A stretch of DNA of 63,629 nt, counting the filler, from Candidatus Tectimicrobiota bacterium (GTDB lineage: Bacteria; JACPSX01), in NCBI GenBank assembly GCA_016193065.1. It is 7 parts of 7 records of this genome, joined end to end, with 100 filler letters (N's around TTAATTAATTAA, not from the genome) between each part and the next. Parts side by side here need not be neighbours in the genome. Positions count along the whole stretch, not along the records: positions 41,232 to 58,528 come from JACPSX010000207.1; 6 more parts are not named here. One strand, 5' to 3'. The stretch's first letter is position 1. Each line of letters begins with the position of its first letter. Positions 1,149-58,628 of the stretch are shown piece by piece. Under the pieces are notes generated by a model that saw only the letters and a list, made by a program, of their open reading frames with translations, had not been told where the DNA came from and ran no database searches. The translations under genes and the position numbers were made by a program.

Positions 1149-1411
1149 GCCTGCGGTGGCAACTCCCTCGGACTGAGACAACTGAGGAAGCTGCTCTCCT
1201 GCCCTGAGCGGAAGTGCCGGGAGCAGCGGCACCCAGAGGGTACCCGATCGGGAGCGGCCAGGGATGGGAAACCGCGCAGCCTAAACTTGCTTTAAGACAG
1301 CTAAATGCTTAACGTGGCGGTAGCGGAGGGGTCCGGGTACCCGTCCTGGGTGTGGGCGCCCCGAAAGGGTCACTGCGGGAGGCTTGAAGCGAAGGGCGGG
1401 AGGGCAGCTTC
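1149..1411 (+). repeat. Structured intergenic element copy 1 (candidate ncRNA or MITE)
   Basis: Clear homology to 48726-49000; 19-bp closing stem 1187-1205/1393-1411 with two G-U pairs; carries micro-elements at 1230-1246 and 1334-1352. Confidence 0.8.
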
Positions 1412-12090: not shown

Positions 12091-12176
12091 CCGTTCGCCT
12101 GGTTCGACAAGCTCACCACAGGCTTCGACCGCGGGTACCCGCGAAGCGGGTGCGGCTTCCGGGTGAGGGCGAACGG
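12091..12176. repeat. REP-like hairpin cluster carrying a nested double micro-element (12130-12165)
   Basis: CCGTTCGCC...GGCGAACGG ends; one empty unit TTCGAC-AAGCTC-A and one filled unit TTCGAC-[element]-A. Confidence 0.85.
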
Positions 12177-16034: not shown

Positions 16035-16134
16035 NNNNNNNNNNNNNNNNNNNNNNNNNNNNNNNNNNNNNNNNNNNNTTAATTAATTAANNNNNNNNNN
16101 NNNNNNNNNNNNNNNNNNNNNNNNNNNNNNNNNN
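16035..16134. other. Artificial contig linker
   Basis: N run + TTAATTAATTAA + N run. Confidence 0.99.
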
Positions 16135-20557: not shown

Positions 20558-20657
20558 NNNNNNNNNNNNNNNNNNNNNNNNNNNNNNNNNNNNNNNNNNN
20601 NTTAATTAATTAANNNNNNNNNNNNNNNNNNNNNNNNNNNNNNNNNNNNNNNNNNNN
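20558..20657. other. Artificial contig linker
   Basis: N run + TTAATTAATTAA + N run. Confidence 0.99.
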
Positions 20658-28049: not shown

Positions 28050-28149
28050 NNNNNNNNNNNNNNNNNNNNNNNNNNNNNNNNNNNNNNNNNNNNTTAATTA
28101 ATTAANNNNNNNNNNNNNNNNNNNNNNNNNNNNNNNNNNNNNNNNNNNN
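28050..28149. other. Artificial contig linker
   Basis: N run + TTAATTAATTAA + N run. Confidence 0.99.
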
Positions 28150-35867: not shown

Positions 35868-35973
35868 CCGTTCAGCCTTCGACCGGGTACCCGGCTTCCG
35901 GGTGAGGCCGAACGGGACGGGTATTGAAATCACTTGGTAGTTGACCGTTCGTGGTGAGCCTGTCGAACCACGA
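35868..35973. repeat. Two REP-like hairpins; the first carries a micro-element at 35884-35904
   Basis: CCGTTC..CCTTCGAC[CGGGTACCCGGCTTCCGGGTG]AGGCCGAACGG, then an empty copy CCGTTCGTGGTGAGCCTGTCGAACCACGAA. Confidence 0.85.
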
Positions 35974-36593: not shown

Positions 36594-36693
36594 NNNNNNN
36601 NNNNNNNNNNNNNNNNNNNNNNNNNNNNNNNNNNNNNTTAATTAATTAANNNNNNNNNNNNNNNNNNNNNNNNNNNNNNNNNNNNNNNNNNNN
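36594..36693. other. Artificial contig linker
   Basis: N run + TTAATTAATTAA + N run. Confidence 0.99.
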
Positions 36694-41131: not shown

Positions 41132-41231
41132 NNNNNNNNNNNNNNNNNNNNNNNNNNNNNNNNNNNNNNNNNNNNTTAATTAATTAANNNNNNNNNNNNN
41201 NNNNNNNNNNNNNNNNNNNNNNNNNNNNNNN
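41132..41231. other. Artificial contig linker
   Basis: N run + TTAATTAATTAA + N run. Confidence 0.99.
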
Positions 41232-42521: not shown

Positions 42522-44075
42522 CTAGAATCCCGTCTTGGCCAGATACTTGCTGTATTCGGTCATCCCCTCTTTGGCCTTTTCAATCTGCTGCTTGCTGAAC
42601 CACTTGTTCAGATCCACCGCATCGATGGGGTACGGGGGCCTCTCAAAAGCATCCCTGTACTGGAACGGGACGGTGGCGTCGACAGCCATCCCGCCAGCGA
42701 AGCGGATGTTTGTCTGTGTCCAATCCCGGTCTCCCGCCGAGCTTCTCTCCGCGGGCTGGAAGGTCTGGCCAAATCCGCCCTGGCAAACCGCCTGGATGCT
42801 GAAAGGAGTCGTGCGCGTCACCAGAGCCCACATGACGTCCTCCACGTTGTAAATATCGATGTCCGTATCGACCGCAATGGTCATCCTCATTCCTAAGGAA
42901 GAGGAGAGAGCCGCGGAGAGAATGTTGCGCTGCAAGCCTTCGTCTCGCTGGCGCCTCTTCTTGATTTGGAAAATCGCTCCACCCCAATCGGTCATGGCCA
43001 TAGGAATGTGGATATCCACACAGAGACCGGGGCTGATCCGGTCCGCAAGCTCCAAAAAGCAGGCTTCCCGCATCATCACATCGATGTAATGGTCGTCAAA
43101 CCCGTGGACGATGAGCGGGTAATAGATCGGCTTCTCGGCCCTGTGAGTGATGGCAGTGACGACGAACTTATAGGTCCGGTAGGCCTTCCCCATATAGCCG
43201 GCCCACTCGGGATGGAACGGGAAGACCCCCTGCTTGCCGGTCCTTTCGGCCTCCTCGCTCTCCCAGACTTTCTGGGTCGTATCCAGATACCCCTCGATGA
43301 CATACTCGGCCTGGGCAATCGAATAGGCATCCACGGTGCGAGCCTTGACAATCTCAATCGGAGAGCCCTGCATGGCTCCCGCCACACCCAGCTCATCCGA
43401 GCCCTTGTGCAGGATCATATAGAGGAACCCCGCTCCGGCCATCAAGGTGCAGGCAGGCGGAACCCCCATATTGATCGTCATGGGGATCGGCTCTTTGCGG
43501 TACCACTCGGTGGCGATCATATCCGTGTGGGAACCCGGAGAGATCTGGAAGCTGGAGAAATTGGGACCGCGGAAGTGCATGCGGTTGTAGCTGATGTGTG
43601 TCCCGCCCCAGAAGTATTTCCCCGTGACCAGGGTATTTCCCCCGCCCAGTGTGCGCCCGGGATCCTTCCTCGTGTGGGAGATCATCGGGATCACCTTCCA
43701 GGCATCTATATCCTTGTCGATGACCACTTCCTGGCAGGGGGCATCCTTGACCACTTTGGGAGGCAACGGGTGCCGCAAGGCCTCGACGCACTTGAACTTG
43801 AATTTCCTGGGATCCTCGACTCCGAATAGGCGGGACACCCGTTCTTCGTTGGCAAACAAGTTGGTGAACAAGCGGCCGTTCGGGTAACCTTTTACCTTTT
43901 GGAACAGAAGGGATTTTCCTCCGTCCAGATGCTTTTGAATCGCAGCCATCTCCAGGGCAGGATCAATCTCTACTTCCGTCTCTATCAGCTCGCCCGCATC
44001 CCGCAAATATTCAATGGTGCTCCGTAGCGAAGTGAAATCTTTCACCGCTACTGCGGTTCCGCCGTCTTTTGCCAT
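42522..44075 (-). CDS. UbiD-family (prFMN-dependent) decarboxylase/carboxylase
   Basis: DELGVAGA.QG, AEYVIEG, PEWAGY, IAVDTDIDI, DAT.P. Confidence 0.88.
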   Translation of the reverse strand: MAKDGGTAVAVKDFTSLRSTIEYLRDAGELIETEVEIDPALEMAAIQKHLDGGKSLLFQKVKGYPNGRLFTNLFANEERVSRLFGVEDPRKFKFKCVEALRHPLPPKVVKDAPCQEVVIDKDIDAWKVIPMISHTRKDPGRTLGGGNTLVTGKYFWGGTHISYNRMHFRGPNFSSFQISPGSHTDMIATEWYRKEPIPMTINMGVPPACTLMAGAGFLYMILHKGSDELGVAGAMQGSPIEIVKARTVDAYSIAQAEYVIEGYLDTTQKVWESEEAERTGKQGVFPFHPEWAGYMGKAYRTYKFVVTAITHRAEKPIYYPLIVHGFDDHYIDVMMREACFLELADRISPGLCVDIHIPMAMTDWGGAIFQIKKRRQRDEGLQRNILSAALSSSLGMRMTIAVDTDIDIYNVEDVMWALVTRTTPFSIQAVCQGGFGQTFQPAERSSAGDRDWTQTNIRFAGGMAVDATVPFQYRDAFERPPYPIDAVDLNKWFSKQQIEKAKEGMTEYSKYLAKTGF

Positions 44076-44331
44076 GTGATTCTCCTCCTTTAGGAAATCC
44101 CAATCCGGATATAACACAGCCAGGGGACTCACGCAAAACCCGACCCCCCCGGGAAATTGTGCGCTTGGAACCGGGTTTGATGTTCGCAGGCTGAGTTCGG
44201 ATTGCGGTAGTTTAGTCTACTTCTACTCCCTAACCCAGCGGAAGATCCCTGGCCTGAAGGTATTTGCCGAGCGACTTTAACACGCAGCCCGACCCCCCTG
44301 TCAAGCGCAAAAATTCACTCGCACGGACGAC

Positions 44332-44679
44332 TCACTCTTCGTCATCGTAAACTTCTTCTTCCTCCGGAAGAGGGCCCTCCAGATCTTCAATTGTTGCGCC
44401 TCCAAGATCTTCTTCGAGAAATTCCCCCTCCGCAAGGTCCGCTTCTTCTTCATATCCAATCTCATCGCCGGGAGGCGGGAGGACATCCAGTTCCTCTTCC
44501 TCGATCTCAACAGGTCTGCGGGCGCTGCGCGCGGCCGCCGCCTTCAATTCGTCATGGCGGGCCGACTTCTGGTTCGCGTTGCAGCGCGGGCAGACCGGTT
44601 CCGGGCGGCCGAGATCGTAAAACTTGCAGGCGCATTTAAAGCAGGTGTGTTTCTTGCCAAGTACCGGCTCTTTTGCCAT
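44332..44679 (-). CDS. FYDLN acid domain protein (TIGR02300-like)
   Basis: LGKKHTC..C..KFYDL....VCPRC plus acidic tail. Confidence 0.9.
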   Translation of the reverse strand: MAKEPVLGKKHTCFKCACKFYDLGRPEPVCPRCNANQKSARHDELKAAAARSARRPVEIEEEELDVLPPPGDEIGYEEEADLAEGEFLEEDLGGATIEDLEGPLPEEEEVYDDEE

Positions 44680-44814
44680 TCTTCCCAAACCTCACTGCTG
44701 GCATCCCAGCAAAAATGCAAGTCACTTTTAGAGACCCTTTTCAAAAATGTCAACAGCTTTTTATAAACAATCTCTCAAAGGGTTACCCGCTGTCCGGCAG
44801 GGTCCTGGGGGAAT

Positions 44815-46434
44815 TTACGGGGCCCCGCCTGATCCGCACCCACTTCGTGGGTACCCGCGCTTTGCGGGTGTCCCGTAGCCGCCCCCTCCCGGGGTAGAAA
44901 TCGAGATTCGATCTCCCCTGGCGGTGCAAAAGGTCACTTTGCCGGGCAGGGGCTCCACTCTTCCTTCCCGGGTGAGAAGATTCTCCCCGGGTTTCCCGGG
45001 ATACCCCCCCTGAAGTCCATAGGGGGCAAACTTCCTGCGTTCCGAGAGAATGGACACTGTGGCCGGCGTCAAACACTCTATTTCCCGGATGATTCCGTCC
45101 CCGCCTCTCCGGCTCCCGGCCCCTCCGGACCCCCTCCGTAATCCGTACCGGAGCACCCGCAAGGGAAACGACAATTCCAAGGCTTCCACCGGAGTATTCA
45201 TGGTATTCGTCATATGGGTGTGAACCCCATCCAGCCCGTCTCGATCCGGGCGGGCCCCCATTCCCCCAGCGATGGTCTCATAGTAGGTAAAAGGCTCTCC
45301 TGTCTGCGGGTCCACCCCTCCCACGACCAGGCTGCTCATGCTTCCGCAACTGGCGGCCGGTATGCGCTCCGCTATAGCCTGGGCCAGAGCCCCCAAAAGA
45401 ACATCCACAATCCGCTGGGAAGTTTCGGTATTACCGGCTCCCACGGCAGCCGGGTAGACCGCGTTGACGACCGACCCCCGGGGAGCCCGGATTTCGATCG
45501 GAGACAGGACACCTGAGTTACTCGGTAGACGTGGATCACTTAATGAACGAAAGACGTAGAAAACTGCTGCCACCGTGACCGCCAATACCGCATTGACCGG
45601 CCCCTGACACTGGGGATCAGAGCCCGTGAAATCGACCGCGGCCTTCTCACCAGCAATGGTGATCTGGACGGCGATTCGAACGGGCTCCTCGGAAATCCCG
45701 TCATCGTCCAAATAATCAGTAAAGGAGTAAACCCCGTCCGGAATCTCCCGGATCATGGCCCGGGTCATCCGTCCCGAATACTCGAGCAGAGAAACCATCG
45801 CCTCGCAGGTCAGCTCGACCCCTTCTTTACGGAGGAGTTCCGACAGCCGGCGTTGCCCGGTGTAATTCGCGGCCACCTGCGCCATCAAATCCCCCCGGCG
45901 CTCCTCCGGAGTCCGCACGTTGGCCAGGATCAGGCGCAGGAGATGCTCATCGACCTCCCCTGCGCGGCAGATCCGCAGGGGGGGCAACCGCAGCCCTTCC
46001 TGAAAGATTTCCCGGGCTGTGGACAGCGATCCGGGAGCCATGCCTCCCACATCAGCGTGATGGGCCCGGTTCGCGACAAACCCGACCAGCCGGTCTGCGG
46101 CGGCCGAAAAGACCGGAGCCACCAGGGTTAGATCGGGGAGATGGGTGCCGCCGCGGTACGGATCGTTGAGCAGGACCATGTCCCCTGGTTCCCACGCGGG
46201 CATGGACTCCAGCGCGCTTTGTACGGACATCGGCATAGAACCCAGGTGCACGGGGAGATGGGAGGCCTGCTCCACCATGCGCCCCTGGGAGTCGAACAGG
46301 GCGCAAGAATAATCCCGCCGCTCCTTTATATTCGGGGAAAACGCGCTGCGGCACAGGGCTACCCCCATCTCCTCAGCAATAGCGCTGAAGCGGTGCCGAA
46401 AAATTTCCAGCCTGACGGGATCCATTCTCTCCAA
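44815..46434 (-). CDS. Hydantoinase B / 5-oxoprolinase family subunit
   Basis: SPNIKERRDYSCA, NDPYRGGTHLPD, HHADVGG, NTPVEALE, TPGGGGYG. Confidence 0.93.
   Translation of the reverse strand: MERMDPVRLEIFRHRFSAIAEEMGVALCRSAFSPNIKERRDYSCALFDSQGRMVEQASHLPVHLGSMPMSVQSALESMPAWEPGDMVLLNDPYRGGTHLPDLTLVAPVFSAAADRLVGFVANRAHHADVGGMAPGSLSTAREIFQEGLRLPPLRICRAGEVDEHLLRLILANVRTPEERRGDLMAQVAANYTGQRRLSELLRKEGVELTCEAMVSLLEYSGRMTRAMIREIPDGVYSFTDYLDDDGISEEPVRIAVQITIAGEKAAVDFTGSDPQCQGPVNAVLAVTVAAVFYVFRSLSDPRLPSNSGVLSPIEIRAPRGSVVNAVYPAAVGAGNTETSQRIVDVLLGALAQAIAERIPAASCGSMSSLVVGGVDPQTGEPFTYYETIAGGMGARPDRDGLDGVHTHMTNTMNTPVEALELSFPLRVLRYGLRRGSGGAGSRRGGDGIIREIECLTPATVSILSERRKFAPYGLQGGYPGKPGENLLTREGRVEPLPGKVTFCTARGDRISISTPGGGGYGTPAKRGYPRSGCGSGGAP
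44835..44870. mobile_element. Nested double micro-element in the hydantoinase B 3' end
   Basis: CG[CACCCACTTCGTGGGTACCCG]CGCTTTGCGGGTG. Confidence 0.85.
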
Positions 46435-46446
46435 ACCCGCGCCTAT

Positions 46447-48420
46447 CTATAAACTCACCACGAGGTTGCCGTACTCGTCCACACAGGCCGAGAACCCGGG
46501 CGGGAGAAAAGTCGTGGCGCTAAACTCCACCACCAGAGCAGGACCCGAGATCTCATGGCCCCATCTGAGTTTGTCCCGATCGAAGACCGCAGCCATAAAT
46601 CGCTCCCCGCCGTAAACCAGATCCTGGCTGCAGGCGAGGGCCGAAGAGGAATCCGTTTCGCACCGTTCTCCCTTTGGCCAAACGGGCCTCGGAACCGTTC
46701 CAGAGGCCCTCACCCTCAGGTTCACCACCTCCACCGGACGCCGGGGATCCGAGTGCCCGTACGCCTGCCGGTGGGCCTGGTGGAAGTCGGCAAGGACTGT
46801 CGGGCCAAAGGGCAGCATCAGCTCATAGGACTGCCCGGCATAGCGCAGATCCACAAAACATTCAAGGAGCCTGTTCTCAAAGGGGATTTCCTCCTCTGCC
46901 AGCTCCCGGTCCCCTTTTTCCAACAAGGGAGAAAACAGGCCGCCAATTTCCTCCAGGTCCCCCTCGCTTAGGGGCCTTAGAACCGAGAGCGAAGTGTCCC
47001 GGACCACGTCCGCCATGAGCATGCCCAGTGCAGAGAGAACTCCCGGGTACTTGGGGATCAAAACCCGCGGAATCGCCAGAAACCGGGCCAGCTCGCAGGC
47101 GTGCAGGCCCCCCGCTCCTCCAAAGCTCACCAGGGTAAACTCCTTGGGATCGTGCCCTTTCTCCACCGACCCGACCCGTATGGCACGCTCCATGGTGGCA
47201 TTGGCGACCGCCAGGACCCCCTCGGCTGCCTGTAAAGGGGTCATGTGCAGCGCCTGAGCCAGCTCTTCAAATGGGGCTTCGAGGCGGGCCGGATACAAGG
47301 GGAACTGTCCGCCCAGCAAAGAATGACGAAACAGCCGGCCCAACAGGAGATGGGCATCGGTCACCGTAAGACGGCAGCCGCGGCCATAACACACCGGCCC
47401 TGGATCAGCGCCTGCGCTTTCCGGCCCCACCGCCAGGCCGCCTGCCCGATCGACCCGCGCGATGGATCCACCTCCGGCCCCGACGCTGTGGATGGCGAGC
47501 ATTGGCATGCGGACCGGATATCCGGCGATTTCCGCCTCGCTCGTGAAGGGAGCCTTTCCGGGACACAGTGAGACATCCGTGGAGGTGCCCCCCATATCAA
47601 AGGAAATGATCCGGTCAAATCCGGCCCTCCGGGCCACGGCCAGGGCTCCCACTACCCCGCCCGCCGGTCCCGAAAGCAGAGTATGAACTGGAGCTCTTTG
47701 CGCCGCCGCAAGGGACATGGAGCCCCCATTGGACTGCATGACCCGCAGACGACCGGGGGCGATCCCGTCCTCCAGGCGATCCAGGTAGCGGGCCATGACC
47801 GGCATCACGTATGCGTTCATGACCGTGGTCGAGCAACGCTCGTACTCCCGGTATTCGGGGACGACCTCGCTGGACGGGGAGCACGGGAAGCCTGCACCCC
47901 TCAGGAGTACAGCCACCCGGTTCTCATGCTCCGGGCGAAGGAAGGAAAAGAGCAAGCAGATCGCCACCGATTCCACCCCCTGCCGCCGCAGTTCTTCCAC
48001 CAGATTCTGGACCTCCCGCGGATCCAACGGGGACAGAATTTCTCCCCGGGCCGAGACCCGTTCCCGGACCCCGAACCGGCGGCTGGCGGGCACCAAAACA
48101 GGACGCCGTTCCACGGAAAAGTTGTAGATTTCGCGCCGGATCTGGCGGCCAATCTCAAGCACGTCCTCGAAGCCGGCCGTCGTGATCAGTGCCGTACGTG
48201 CCCCTTTTCCTTCCAGCACTGCATTGGTGGCCACCGTAGAACCATGGACCCCGGACCAGGGAAGTTCTCCAACACATTTCCGGATCCCCTGCCCAATTGC
48301 CTCCTCGGGAGCCGACGGAGTCGAGGGAACTTTATGGATCCTCACGCTCCCGTCCGGGGCCAGGAAGACAAAGTCCGTAAAGGTCCCTCCCGTGTCAATC
48401 CCCGCCAGCAATCGTTCCAT
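46447..48420 (-). CDS. Hydantoinase A / 5-oxoprolinase family subunit
   Basis: DTGGTFTD, HGSTVATNA, SGPAGG, DMGGTSTD, GAGGGSIA. Confidence 0.93.
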   Translation of the reverse strand: MERLLAGIDTGGTFTDFVFLAPDGSVRIHKVPSTPSAPEEAIGQGIRKCVGELPWSGVHGSTVATNAVLEGKGARTALITTAGFEDVLEIGRQIRREIYNFSVERRPVLVPASRRFGVRERVSARGEILSPLDPREVQNLVEELRRQGVESVAICLLFSFLRPEHENRVAVLLRGAGFPCSPSSEVVPEYREYERCSTTVMNAYVMPVMARYLDRLEDGIAPGRLRVMQSNGGSMSLAAAQRAPVHTLLSGPAGGVVGALAVARRAGFDRIISFDMGGTSTDVSLCPGKAPFTSEAEIAGYPVRMPMLAIHSVGAGGGSIARVDRAGGLAVGPESAGADPGPVCYGRGCRLTVTDAHLLLGRLFRHSLLGGQFPLYPARLEAPFEELAQALHMTPLQAAEGVLAVANATMERAIRVGSVEKGHDPKEFTLVSFGGAGGLHACELARFLAIPRVLIPKYPGVLSALGMLMADVVRDTSLSVLRPLSEGDLEEIGGLFSPLLEKGDRELAEEEIPFENRLLECFVDLRYAGQSYELMLPFGPTVLADFHQAHRQAYGHSDPRRPVEVVNLRVRASGTVPRPVWPKGERCETDSSSALACSQDLVYGGERFMAAVFDRDKLRWGHEISGPALVVEFSATTFLPPGFSACVDEYGNLVVSL

Positions 48421-48725: not shown

Positions 48726-49000
48726 GCCTGCGGGGGCAACCCCTCGGAGGAGAGAGCACCAAGGGGACTGTCCTTCCTGCCCTGAGCGCAACTGCCGGGA
48801 GCAGCGCAACACCCGCAAAGCGGGTACCCGCACCGGGAGCGGCCAGGGATGGGAAACCGCGCAGCTAGACTTGCTGGCAGATAGCTGAAAACTTATCGTG
48901 GCGGTAGCGGAGGGCTCCGGGTACCCGTCCTGGGTGTGGGCGCCCCGAGAAGGGTCGCTGCGGGAGGCGTGGAGCGAAGGGCAGGAAAACAGTCCCTTTG
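48726..49000 (+). repeat. Structured intergenic element copy 2 (candidate ncRNA or MITE)
   Basis: Homologous to 1149-1411; closing stem 48760-48783/48978-49000; micro-elements at 48810-48830 and 48918-48936. Confidence 0.8.
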
Positions 49001-58528: not shown

Positions 58529-58628
58529 NNNNNNNNNNNNNNNNNNNNNNNNNNNNNNNNNNNNNNNNNNNNTTAATTAATTAANNNNNNNNNNNNNNNN
58601 NNNNNNNNNNNNNNNNNNNNNNNNNNNN
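58529..58628. other. Artificial contig linker
   Basis: N run + TTAATTAATTAA + N run. Confidence 0.99.

Follow-up and report, generated by a model that had tools for sequence, protein, structure and literature searches.

The minus strand of the window, the whole stretch of 63,629 nucleotides from a Candidatus Tectimicrobiota bacterium that was analysed, carries an ORF of the hydantoinase B/oxoprolinase family, hyuB, which ends in a TAA stop codon at 44815-44817 (Table 1). The database record of its product, P0001, is 536 aa long and starts three residues downstream of the TTG start. PF02538, precomputed for P0001 and for all 120 listed relatives, places the protein in this family, while comparison with the NCBIfam equivalogs gave scores far under the cut-offs (263.7 bits for a caprolactamase-beta-like match) and assigned no specific substrate. 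The C-terminal end of HyuB reads ...STPGGGGYGTPAKRGYPRSGCGSGGAP*. The codons of the terminal PGGGGYG motif occupy 44872-44892 and are followed by a 36-nt composite translated as TPAKRGYPRSGCG, the very residues that the original prediction had added at this point, and the reading frame is uninterrupted across the composite up to the stop codon. The prediction had also placed the structure inside a coding region, which is correct, but the region concerned is the last 19 codons of hyuB, and the net gain is of ~10 codons, within a tail of family-variable length. When C-termini were compared, the GGGG[YFW]G motif aligned in six orthologues (43-60% identity), which stop 2-5 residues past it, as opposed to 18 in HyuB here. 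HyuB-family tails are 0 to 51 residues long, and the original tail length is therefore uncertain.

Table 1 Positions of hyuB, of the parts of its composite, and of the related sites in the window
Feature	Position	Strand	Description
hydantoinase B/oxoprolinase-family ORF (hyuB)	44815..46434	minus	539 aa from TTG
36-nt composite (nested dimer)	44835..44870	.	CG + inverted 21-mer + 13-nt arm of outer unit
left remnant CG of outer unit	44835..44836	plus	comparison with empty paralogues ..CG GGTACC CG..
inner unit CACCCACTTCGTGGGTACCCG, inverted relative to outer unit	44837..44857	minus	AC/GT stem, GAA-loop subfamily (minus-strand reading)
shared palindromic core GGGTACCC (GTAC 'tag'), junction of both hairpins	44849..44856	.	
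right arm of outer unit, CGCTTTGCGGGTG	44858..44870	plus	GC stem, TTT loop; same TTT-loop unit intact in P0004
other nest in the window	12130..12165	plus	forward 21-mer CGGGTACCCGCGAAGCGGGTG replaces GGTACC of a unit in a larger repeat
empty (un-nested) paralogue of the 12130 repeat	35877..35906	plus	CTTCGACC GGGTACCC GGCTTCCGGGTG AG

The sequence at 44835-44870, CGCACCCACTTCGTGGGTACCCGCGCTTTGCGGGTG, parses exactly into the structure that had been claimed, CG + CACCCACTTCGTGGGTACCCG + CGCTTTGCGGGTG. As single-stranded DNA, it folds into two abutting stem-loops (-12.3 kcal/mol; z -3.0 for the plus and -2.6 for the minus strand). Both hairpins are of one kind, a 21-mer of the form C-GGGTACCC-stem/loop/stem-GGGTG, in which C-GGGTACCC is followed by a 2-nt stem extension, a 3-nt loop, the complement of the extension and GGGTG. 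The unit thus forms a 6-bp hairpin with a 3-nt loop, preceded by the self-complementary GTAC tag. Strict copies number 143 in the 2.9-Mb, 294-contig genome, a fragmented assembly that is 86% complete, and none were found with the reversed-pattern control. Taken as 20-mers, 134 of the 143 have C at position -1, and the stem extensions are fully complementary in 126. Far exceeding chance, the hairpin ACCCxyNNNy'x'GGGT has 135 perfect 15-nt occurrences, versus 2-26 for 11 control tetramer pairs, and carries the asymmetric flanks GGGT..G or C..ACCC on 124 of them. A narrower pattern, GGGTACCCSSNNNSSGGGTG, was matched 98 times here, 8 times in the congener and never in the reversed control, and GGGTACCC itself occurs 259 times in the genome, 136 of them inside CGGGTACCCG. 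A hyper-abundant palindrome of the HIP type was considered and rejected, GGTACC being found 616 times against 527 expected and being rarer than GGATCC (1905).

Units are found in both orientations, in intergenic as well as intragenic positions. Single units predominate, with 27 head-to-head pairs versus 143 units, and further composite geometries comprise period-16 tandem arrays at four loci and, at two, head-to-head pairs whose arms measure 8+7 nt. By a crude, unvalidated test based on GC3 and open frames, 24 of 111 testable clusters were located 60 or more codons within a frame resembling coding sequence, versus 764 of 1500 random sites, suggesting that units are depleted from, yet present in, gene interiors. 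Where translated, the 21-nt unit is read in several frames, giving HPQGGYP, PGTRLAGA, RGYPRSG and others. Literature searches with the four commonest 20-mers of the family returned no papers, and a search with GGGTACCCG returned, among the matches listed, none concerning bacterial repeats. The 21-mers of this groundwater bacterium belong to a known kind of selfish DNA but form a new family. At the hyuB site, two of these very small, REP-like palindromes, which are dispersed throughout the genome, probably lie together.

The original prediction held that the palindromic core is itself a target, used in either direction. Genome-wide regular expressions for nests gave 17 inverted and 7 forward matches, and none in the reversed-genome control; among the inverted matches, 8 of 17 have an inner unit of the GAA-loop subfamily, as does the copy on contig C185. 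CG stands on the right in 23 of the 36 units with GC on the left, but in just 5 of the 107 remaining units. Moreover, four larger repeat families include both empty (..CG GGTACC CG..) and filled (..CG + 21-mer + CG..) copies. Aligning empty to filled copies with a single contiguous 15-nt insertion costs 5 extra mismatches, while a 2+13 split around GGTACC costs none, which equals a 21-mer replacing 6 nt. The other nest in the window, CG + CGGGTACCCGCGAAGCGGGTG + CGGCTTCCGGGTG, follows the same rule: compared with its empty paralogue, the 2+13 split leaves 0 mismatches and one 15-nt gap at least 5. Its flanking junctions are those of the hyuB composite, while its inner unit and orientation differ, as had been stated; the two events are independent of each other. 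These data show that new copies arise as a net gain of 15 nt, with the 21-mer in place of 6 nt, and that the GGTACC core of a resident unit serves as a target, yielding a nest of two hairpins with one common core. Together with an un-nested unit in the HyuB homologue P0004 (below), the exact split bears out use of the core in either direction. An IS608-style model, with a plain 15-nt hairpin inserted after GGGT, was rejected: it predicts period-15 tandem hairpins rather than the observed nests, and is opposed both by the single period-15 tandem match and by the 5 extra mismatches of single-gap alignments.

The only congener genome, G001, served as the reference for empty sites of this genome, G000. 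Four unit-bearing genes were verified against it. GlnE carries a single unit (+15 nt, in frame) and also the same composite as hyuB (+30 nt, in frame); RNase R and the TamB-like gene each gained 15 nt, in frame, and Mfd 45 nt. The orthologous empty sites revealed no target-site duplication, but six nucleotides replaced and a net gain of 15. They look loosely core-like, for example AGATACCC versus GGGTACCC in the TamB-like gene; with n = 4 and ~16-20% divergence, no target consensus is claimed. Three further sites gave no empty counterpart in G001: that of the C98 composite falls within ~1.2 kb skipped by the G001 matches, that of the C110 composite in a region without a match, and at the DnaX site the right flank did not align.

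How the composite came to lie in hyuB is best explained, though at modest odds, by two-step nesting of REP-like units in the gene's tail. An outer unit with a GC stem and TTT loop would have landed first, just past the last conserved motif, and an inverted AC-stem unit would then have taken its core. Both steps would lengthen the gene by a multiple of three, leaving its reading frame and original stop codon intact. A homologue from another metagenome, P0004 (89% identical), ends in GGGGYG-HPQSGHPQSGYP and, at the level of protein comparison, has the outer TTT-loop unit intact at the same site, without the inverted inner unit. Its tail and unit arrangement differ from those of HyuB here, and its HPQSG-HPQSGYP implies a 15-nt tandem. 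A metagenome-contig search with P0004 found at best 59% identity among 80 loci, the P0004 contig not being one of them, and a search for close shorter HyuB fragments (region 440-539) gave 323 matches, the best at 64% identity and none close.

The most serious alternative, which we regard as possible although the less probable course, is that the 36-nt composite is itself a replicative unit, a tail-to-tail REP dimer akin to a REPIN, and reached hyuB ready-made, with no nesting there. Indeed, four near-identical 36-mers were found, on C123, at C15:26785, at C142:14102 and at C15:12013, where the copy caps a tandem array. The C15:26785 copy is identical to that in hyuB at 36/36 positions (43/44 with flanks) and the C142:14102 copy, which is the one in GlnE, at 35/36. 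At the GlnE site, nothing is present in G001 and the whole composite (+30 nt) in G000, with no intermediate seen, and parts of PMC3116915 make the case for REP doublets as the unit of replication in Pseudomonas. Given these copies, and since the GC-TTT-GC type makes up just 11 of the 143 units, it is unlikely that nesting took place independently at each of the sites, and the composite must also spread as one piece. Against a ready-made arrival at hyuB stand the lone outer TTT-loop unit of P0004, the excess of single units over pairs, and the retention of the family's own outer loop in the filled copies of three larger repeat families, which points to nesting in place; the filled copy on C65, for instance, keeps CTG like the empty paralogues on C40, C133 and C269. 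We modestly favour an outer unit first, with the inner one added in place, over arrival of the finished 36-mer. The event at hyuB, which the original prediction had called independent without qualification, is favoured, not proven, to have occurred at that site itself.

That the element is kept for a role, whether in stabilising or terminating hyuB mRNA at its 3' end or as a useful C-terminal peptide, seems improbable. Stable twin hairpins do lie at the extreme 3' end of hyuB, and REPs downstream of ORFs are thought to be RNA elements in passages of PMC3733652. However, no T-run terminator was found in 44300-45100, where promoter predictions likewise numbered 0, and no Rfam match in 44000-45500 (E <= 1). 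The site varies between close populations, with 11 extra letters in the outer arm in run X5 and another arrangement and tail in P0004, and the placement of units in either orientation, within and between genes, also argues against a function. The ~10 added residues look harmless, and we infer that the insertion is tolerated rather than useful. Less probable still is that replication produced both hairpins locally, through slippage or template switching at a quasi-palindrome, rather than that dispersed elements were copied. The core is a perfect palindrome, and the period-16 arrays and the P0004 tandem resemble local amplification, but the left and right hairpins are unlike (AC/GT versus GC/GC stem), so that neither is an inverted copy of the other, and other contigs carry identical 21-mers and the 36-mer at unrelated loci, which largely refutes this origin.

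Other samples corroborate the locus through Logan contigs, rather than raw reads, of runs X2-X4, all from the study to which the probable source belongs. Both junctions of the composite are present in contigs of these three samples. Pieces from X3 span 44807-44862 and 44842-44901 with 0 differences (records 11 and 14), and pieces from X2 span 44500-44862 with 1 difference and 44842-45300 with 0 (records 1 and 8). Between them, the X2-X4 pieces connect the unique sequence on either side to the composite. Contig breaks within the repeat explain why no single Logan contig is exact with at least 31 letters on each side; record 17 of X4 does bridge 44500-44901, with 5 substitutions and 6 gap letters. 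A repeat-induced chimera in this metagenome-assembled genome is scarcely credible. In its favour, the window joins 7 short contigs end to end, and Logan contigs break within the element, where the pile-up of other copies raises summed depth 10-fold. Against it, each unique flank is linked, in exact pieces of three further samples, to sequence well beyond the shared core, and the hyuB ORF is open through the composite to its stop.

Copying may be performed by a trans-acting enzyme recognising the hairpin and the core, candidates being a RAYT-like Y1 transposase encoded on contig C67 and the product of an unassembled gene. PF01797 matches lie at C67:157-792 (211 aa) and, as a fragment, on C217; the C67 gene reaches 62.8 bits with NF047646, for which the cut-off is 80. 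No units were found near these matches, in C67:1-1500 or C217:5000-7475. Likewise, no transposase-like ORF lies between unit pairs 350-2600 nt apart (29 of 29 pairs), the enclosed ORFs being housekeeping-looking by eye (part of GlnE, PntB-like, Hsp20-like and so on). A flanked RAYT gene may be missing from the incomplete assembly.

Among known systems, as far as passages of the sources describe them, the closest are tagged REPs, intragenic REP dimers included (PMC3733652), and the Rickettsia palindromic elements (PMC10969869). The GTAG- and CGTC-tagged palindromic repeats, in passages of Di Nocera, De Gregorio and Rocco (2013, PMC3733652), are, like the units here, short GC-rich stem-loops with a conserved tetranucleotide at one end and tens to thousands of copies. 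They too occur as singles or as head-head, tail-tail and tandem dimers, some 1-2 bp apart, form heterodimers with unlike stems, and lie inside ORFs, COOH terminus included, where they are thought neutral; the T. roseum GTAG-23 family even sits within small target palindromes. By contrast, the tag here is GTAC rather than GTAG or CGTC, lies inside GGGTACCC and is invariant next to the stem, 'GTAC' being absent from the main text of PMC3733652. It is self-complementary, so that tail-tail partners here have one tag in common and no spacer. The unit is also merely 21 nt, and the replacement of a 6-nt core by a whole unit, net +15, does not appear in passages of that paper.

The REP/BIME elements of E. 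coli and their RAYT (TnpA-REP), in parts of Ton-Hoang et al. (2012, PMC3333891) and Nunvar et al. (2010, PMC2817692), offer further likenesses: the REPs are imperfect palindromes, mostly in inverted pairs, and RAYT is a Y1 (HUH) transposase that binds a hairpin and 5' tetranucleotide, a RAYT-like ORF being present here as well. Those REPs differ in being 30-40 nt long, GTAG-tagged and separated by linkers, and the E. coli RAYT gene is flanked by its REPs, whereas the RAYT-like gene here lacks nearby units and scores below the family cut-off. A REP-RAYT system or REPtron, a single-copy RAYT flanked by the REPs it mobilises, was thus not found in this incomplete assembly. REPINs, in passages of Bertels and Rainey (2011, PMC3116915), are inverted REP doublets acting as a replicative unit, and the near-identical 36-mers suggest that the dimer here can spread likewise. 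However, the two halves of a REPIN are separated by a spacer (71 or 110 bp being typical totals) and form one long hairpin, while the dimer here is spacerless with two separate hairpins, and pairs are outnumbered by units. Rickettsia palindromic elements, as summarised in parts of Minnick (2024, PMC10969869), are palindromic selfish DNA inserted in frame in unrelated housekeeping genes and translated. The units here share the in-frame insertion, but neither the size (~100-150 bp) nor the single conserved peptide, each adding 5 residues net in several frames. REPs are also preferred landing sites of mobile DNA, in passages of Tobes and Pareja (2006, PMC1525189), the incoming DNA there being a full IS, while the DNA arriving here is a further copy of the mini-element itself, at one exact position. 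With REPs in the broad sense, the units share the short GC-rich stem-loop palindrome and the high, dispersed copy number. MITEs are defined by terminal inverted repeats plus a target-site duplication, and the units differ from them in showing no such duplication at orthologous empty sites.

A bolder reading, which we put forward tentatively and consider rather unlikely, would count the 21-nt units among the smallest self-propagating DNA elements, moving by a core-specific swap of a 6-bp GGTACC-like target for a whole unit, unlike RAYT/IS200-type insertion, with a fixed, frame-neutral quantum of 15 nt that allows both nesting and colonisation of essential genes. The genes named as essential for this reading are GlnE, RNase R, Mfd, the TamB-like gene and HyuB. 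The host's candidate phylum is known from two species genomes.

It matters for annotation that conserved proteins of this lineage owe odd C-terminal tails, and extra loops of 5 or 10 residues, to repeat insertions, rather than to lineage-specific functional motifs or frameshift errors. As an instance of the spread of the smallest bacterial repeats, the family is clean and countable, with an exact junction, a fixed quantum that is a multiple of three, its own core as a target, and different states at one site in related populations. These features make the mechanism of REP-like insertion, unsettled even for the classical families, testable.

In the source genome (G000), the hairpin ACCCxyNNNy'x'GGGT is present 135 times, versus 2-26 times for each of eleven control tetramer pairs, and asymmetric flanks (GGGT...G or the complement C...ACCC) border 124 of the 135. 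The unit thus reads GGGTACCC-xy-NNN-y'x'-GGGTG, made a 21-mer by the C that stands before it in 134 of 143 strict copies, with covarying stems (GC/GC, GG/CC, AC/GT, AT/AT) and loops that, read from GGGTACCC to GGGTG, are mainly CTT, TTT or CTG; the GC-TTT-GC form accounts for only 11 of the 143. A narrower pattern gave 98 matches in G000 and 8 in its congener G001, the only comparison genome for the whole phylum, with no match to the reversed control in either. Units are depleted from genes yet by no means excluded: in a crude test of our own, 24 of 111 clusters lay deep inside coding-like frames, versus 764 of 1500 random sites. No mention of the four commonest 20-mers was found in the literature searched. 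G000 is a metagenome assembly of 2,904,462 bases in 294 contigs (59.6% G+C, completeness 86%), whose DNA was matched in groundwater metagenomes of three studies. The window comprises its contigs C118-C124, joined by runs of N; adjacent parts are not known to be neighbours in the genome.

Two such units meet at 44835-44870, within the gene of HyuB, a hydantoinase B-type protein; Pfam PF02538 (hydantoinase B/oxoprolinase) is assigned to every one of its listed relatives. This composite reads CG CACCCACTTCGTGGGTACCCG CGCTTTGCGGGTG, exactly as parsed in the original prediction, which saw one unit nested, inverted, in the core of another; the composite at 12130-12165 reads CG CGGGTACCCGCGAAGCGGGTG CGGCTTCCGGGTG. 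As single-stranded DNA, the hyuB composite is predicted to form two abutting stem-loops (-12.3 and -12.1 kcal/mol, z -3.0 and -2.6), and its region held no Rfam match and no terminator-like or promoter-like site. Genome-wide, 'CG + inverted 21-mer + C...GGGT' matched 17 times and 'CG + forward 21-mer + C...GGGT' 7 times, with none in the reversed genome. CG stands at the right of 23 of the 36 units with GC at their left, versus 5 of the 107 remaining units. Four larger repeat families hold both empty and filled copies at one position; the filled copy on C65 retains the CTG loop of its family. When empty and filled copies were aligned, the best single gap left 5 mismatches in the forward case and a 2+13 split around GGTACC left 0, while two inverted cases gave 6 versus 1 and 9 versus 4. 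A single contiguous 15-nt insertion therefore cannot account for the step from empty to filled; the most economical description is a complete 21-mer, in either orientation, in place of the hexamer GGTACC. Taken together, regex counts, empty and filled paralogues and alignment costs show the nesting to be genuine and precise, and support the proposal that the palindromic core is a target used in both directions. Nest junctions are highly though not absolutely uniform, the exceptions being four loci (C15, C29, C60, C249) with tandem arrays of period 16, a single pair of period 15, and two head-to-head pairs whose arms measure 8+7 nt.

Repeats, genes and insertions discussed in the text (C, contigs of G000; L, loci)
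Feature	Location	Strand	Remarks
Runs of N	window 16035-16134, 20558-20657, 28050-28149, 36594-36693, 41132-41231, 58529-58628		between contigs
hyuB composite	window 44835-44870 = C123:3604-3639
hyuB ORF	window 44815..46434	minus	translation ends ...ISISTPGGGGYGTPAKRGYPRSGCGSGGAP*
A-subunit-type ORF	window 46447..48420		upstream of hyuB
Gene downstream of hyuB	window 44332-44688	minus	TIGR02300 (FYDLN_acid) zinc-ribbon-like protein, 35.8 bits, slightly under cut-off; adjoining 130-nt spacer has a TTGACA-like hexamer
Inverted nests, AC-stem inner in GC-stem outer	C15:26785, C15:12013, C65, C98, C110, C123 (hyuB), C128, C142:14102		8/17
Inverted nests, AT-stem inner in short outer	C83, C104, C109, C142:11574, C272		5/17
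Inverted nest, AC-stem inner in short-outer family	C185		1/17
Inverted-pattern matches, forward-nest family on opposite strand			2/17
Inverted-pattern match within cluster	C156		1/17
TTCGACC...GGGTGAGGGC family	window 35877 (empty), 12130 (filled)		5 empty (32 nt), 4 filled (47 nt), single regex
GAGGAGGCGACCC...TCAGGAC family	C40, C57:8454, C133, C269 (empty); C65 (filled)
CCCTTCGCTTCC...TTCCGCAGCGACC family	C55, C182, C57, C84, C241 (empty); C15:26785, C128 (filled)
GAGCC...TGGGCAC family			filled with two different inner subfamilies
Period-16 arrays (GGGTACCCGCNNNGCC)	C15:11966-12045, C29:3577-3627, C60:6383-6417, C249:3063-3097		outside the +15 nest rule; inverted AC-type unit caps the C15 array
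Large repeat (~200 nt or more), ...GCCGGGAGCAGCG-unit-CCGGGAGCGGCCAGGGATGGGAAACCGC..., then CGTGGCGGTAGCGGAGGGG-unit ~90 nt on	window 1210-1360, 48790-48940; also C43, C78, C84, C117, C128, C153, C169		on many contigs; two units per copy
GlnE	C142:11768-15040 (L101)		GGGTACCC at locus positions 1537 and 2349
RNase R	C256 (L102)		+15 nt vs G001, in frame
Mfd	C51 (L103)		+45 nt and +24 nt vs G001, in frame
TamB-like gene	C157 (L116)		+15 nt vs G001, in frame
Membrane-anchored protein, 440 aa	C35:10163-11482 (L104)		six translated units (HPQGGYP, HPQSGYP, HPPGGYP, others) in linker
Repeat-rich DNA, ~1.2 kb	C98:2380-3625 (L113 positions 380-1625)		includes a composite; skipped by G001 DNA matches, the flanking matches lying ~60 nt apart in G001
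RAYT-like Y1 transposase, 211 aa	C67:157-792 (L002)	minus	PF01797, E 7e-14

Insertions elsewhere were compared with orthologues of the congener (84-86% protein identity), where GlnE, RNase R, the TamB-like protein, Mfd and the C35 membrane protein are all without units. In GlnE, a single unit (HPQGGYP) adds 15 nt, and a 36-nt composite (RTHSVGTRALRV), identical to that of hyuB at 35 of 36 positions and directly preceding the second nucleotidyltransferase motif, adds 30 nt. The linker of the C35 protein is unit-free and about 50 residues shorter in G001. Single-unit sites hold 21 nt where G001 has 6, and no target duplication was seen at the sites compared.

The hyuB insertion shows in the protein: 18 residues follow GGGG[YFW]G in HyuB versus 2-5 in six orthologues (43-60% identity), bearing out the original claim of an extended C-terminus. 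Tails of other relatives range from 0 to 51 residues, suggesting that the HyuB tail is not strongly constrained. Taking a net 30 nt out of hyuB leaves the frame and the TAA stop unchanged, and the composite has thus added about 10 codons, in frame, within the final few codons of the gene, without displacing the stop. For HyuB, this insertion is most likely neutral. At this site P0004, an 89%-identical relative from another metagenome, reads GGGGYG-HPQSG-HPQSGYP-..., in which HPQSGYP, by analogy with HPQGGYP (CACCCGCAAGGCGGGTACCCG) in GlnE, appears to be the translation of an intact outer TTT-loop unit. In this protein-level comparison, P0004 has a 15-nt tandem step in place of the inverted inner unit. 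Its downstream tail (IPAGPCRTAGNPLRDC...) matches the translated spacer past the hyuB stop codon, indicating that the site is homologous. P0004 is the strongest evidence, all at the protein level, that the outer unit probably preceded the inner one at hyuB. Close populations also differ at the composite: a 151-nt contig from X5, a run of a different groundwater study, matched both the inverted unit and the flank to its left, and its outer arm is longer by 11 letters. These letters (contig aligned to window 44739-44878) resemble another G000 repeat family (GGGTACCCCGGGTGCCCTCTGGGCGTGCGG, e.g. C73:1573) and would shift the frame of the HyuB tail.

Logan contigs from three other samples, taken in the same study as the source, support the composite sequence at hyuB, with exact pieces that extend across the shared core from either unique flank (X2, 44500-44862 and 44842-45300; X3, 44807-44862 and 44842-44901). 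X4 gave one bridging contig with 5 substitutions and 6 gap letters. The roughly ten-fold rise in summed depth within the element, where contigs are broken, reflects other repeat copies aligning to the composite. As first proposed, the nests at 12130 and 44835 represent separate events, since their inner units share neither sequence nor orientation. Origin in place at hyuB must be qualified: the 36-mer is identical to that at C15:26785 (36/36, and 43/44 with flanks), and C142:14102 is near-equal. The same pair is unlikely to have been put together independently several times, and the dimer must therefore also spread as one piece; such whole movement would take the form '36 replaces 6', net +30, as in GlnE. 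With this second route available, we lean only modestly towards formation of the nest in place at hyuB.

Copies are dispersed and near-identical, and sites grow by multiples of 15 nt; nests join exactly at the hexamer core, and states vary among close populations. A trans-acting enzyme recognising the core or the hairpin would copy units into GGTACC-like sites. The RAYT-like protein on C67 is a candidate, reaching 62.8 bits over the full NF047646 profile, below the 80-bit cut-off. No unit lies near its gene, and no transposase-like gene is enclosed between paired units. A different short repeat (GGAATTCCCG-like) adjoins the C67 gene, with no GGGTACCC unit nearby. A model in the style of IS608 was rejected: placing a 15-nt hairpin 3' of GGGT should yield hairpins in tandem and leaves nests unexplained.

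Among known elements, the units come nearest to those of the tagged-REP framework set out by Di Nocera et al. 2013 (PMC3733652), which describes stem-loops with a tetranucleotide at the end, dimers arranged head-head, tail-tail or in tandem, some 1-2 bp apart, heterodimers, and one family sitting inside small target palindromes; intragenic copies, including COOH-terminal ones, are judged there likely neutral. In those terms the hyuB composite is a tail-tail heterodimer. The units differ from the REPs described there in their tag, a self-complementary GTAC within GGGTACCC. GTAC being its own complement, a single tag serves both dimer partners, which abut without a spacer, and incoming units land in the tag region. 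By contrast, E. coli REPs are described as 30-40 nt long, GTAG-tagged and linker-paired in BIMEs, with a RAYT that requires GTAG (PMC3333891), REPINs as having spacers and forming a single long hairpin (PMC3116915), unlike the two stem-loops of the composite, and Rickettsia palindromic elements as spanning about 150 bp (PMC10969869), versus 21 nt here. The original observation is thus confirmed and its interpretation supported, with caveats on independence and exceptions. The units form a new family, tagged with GTAC, within a known kind of element; its self-nesting and frame-neutral insertion rule are unusually exact.
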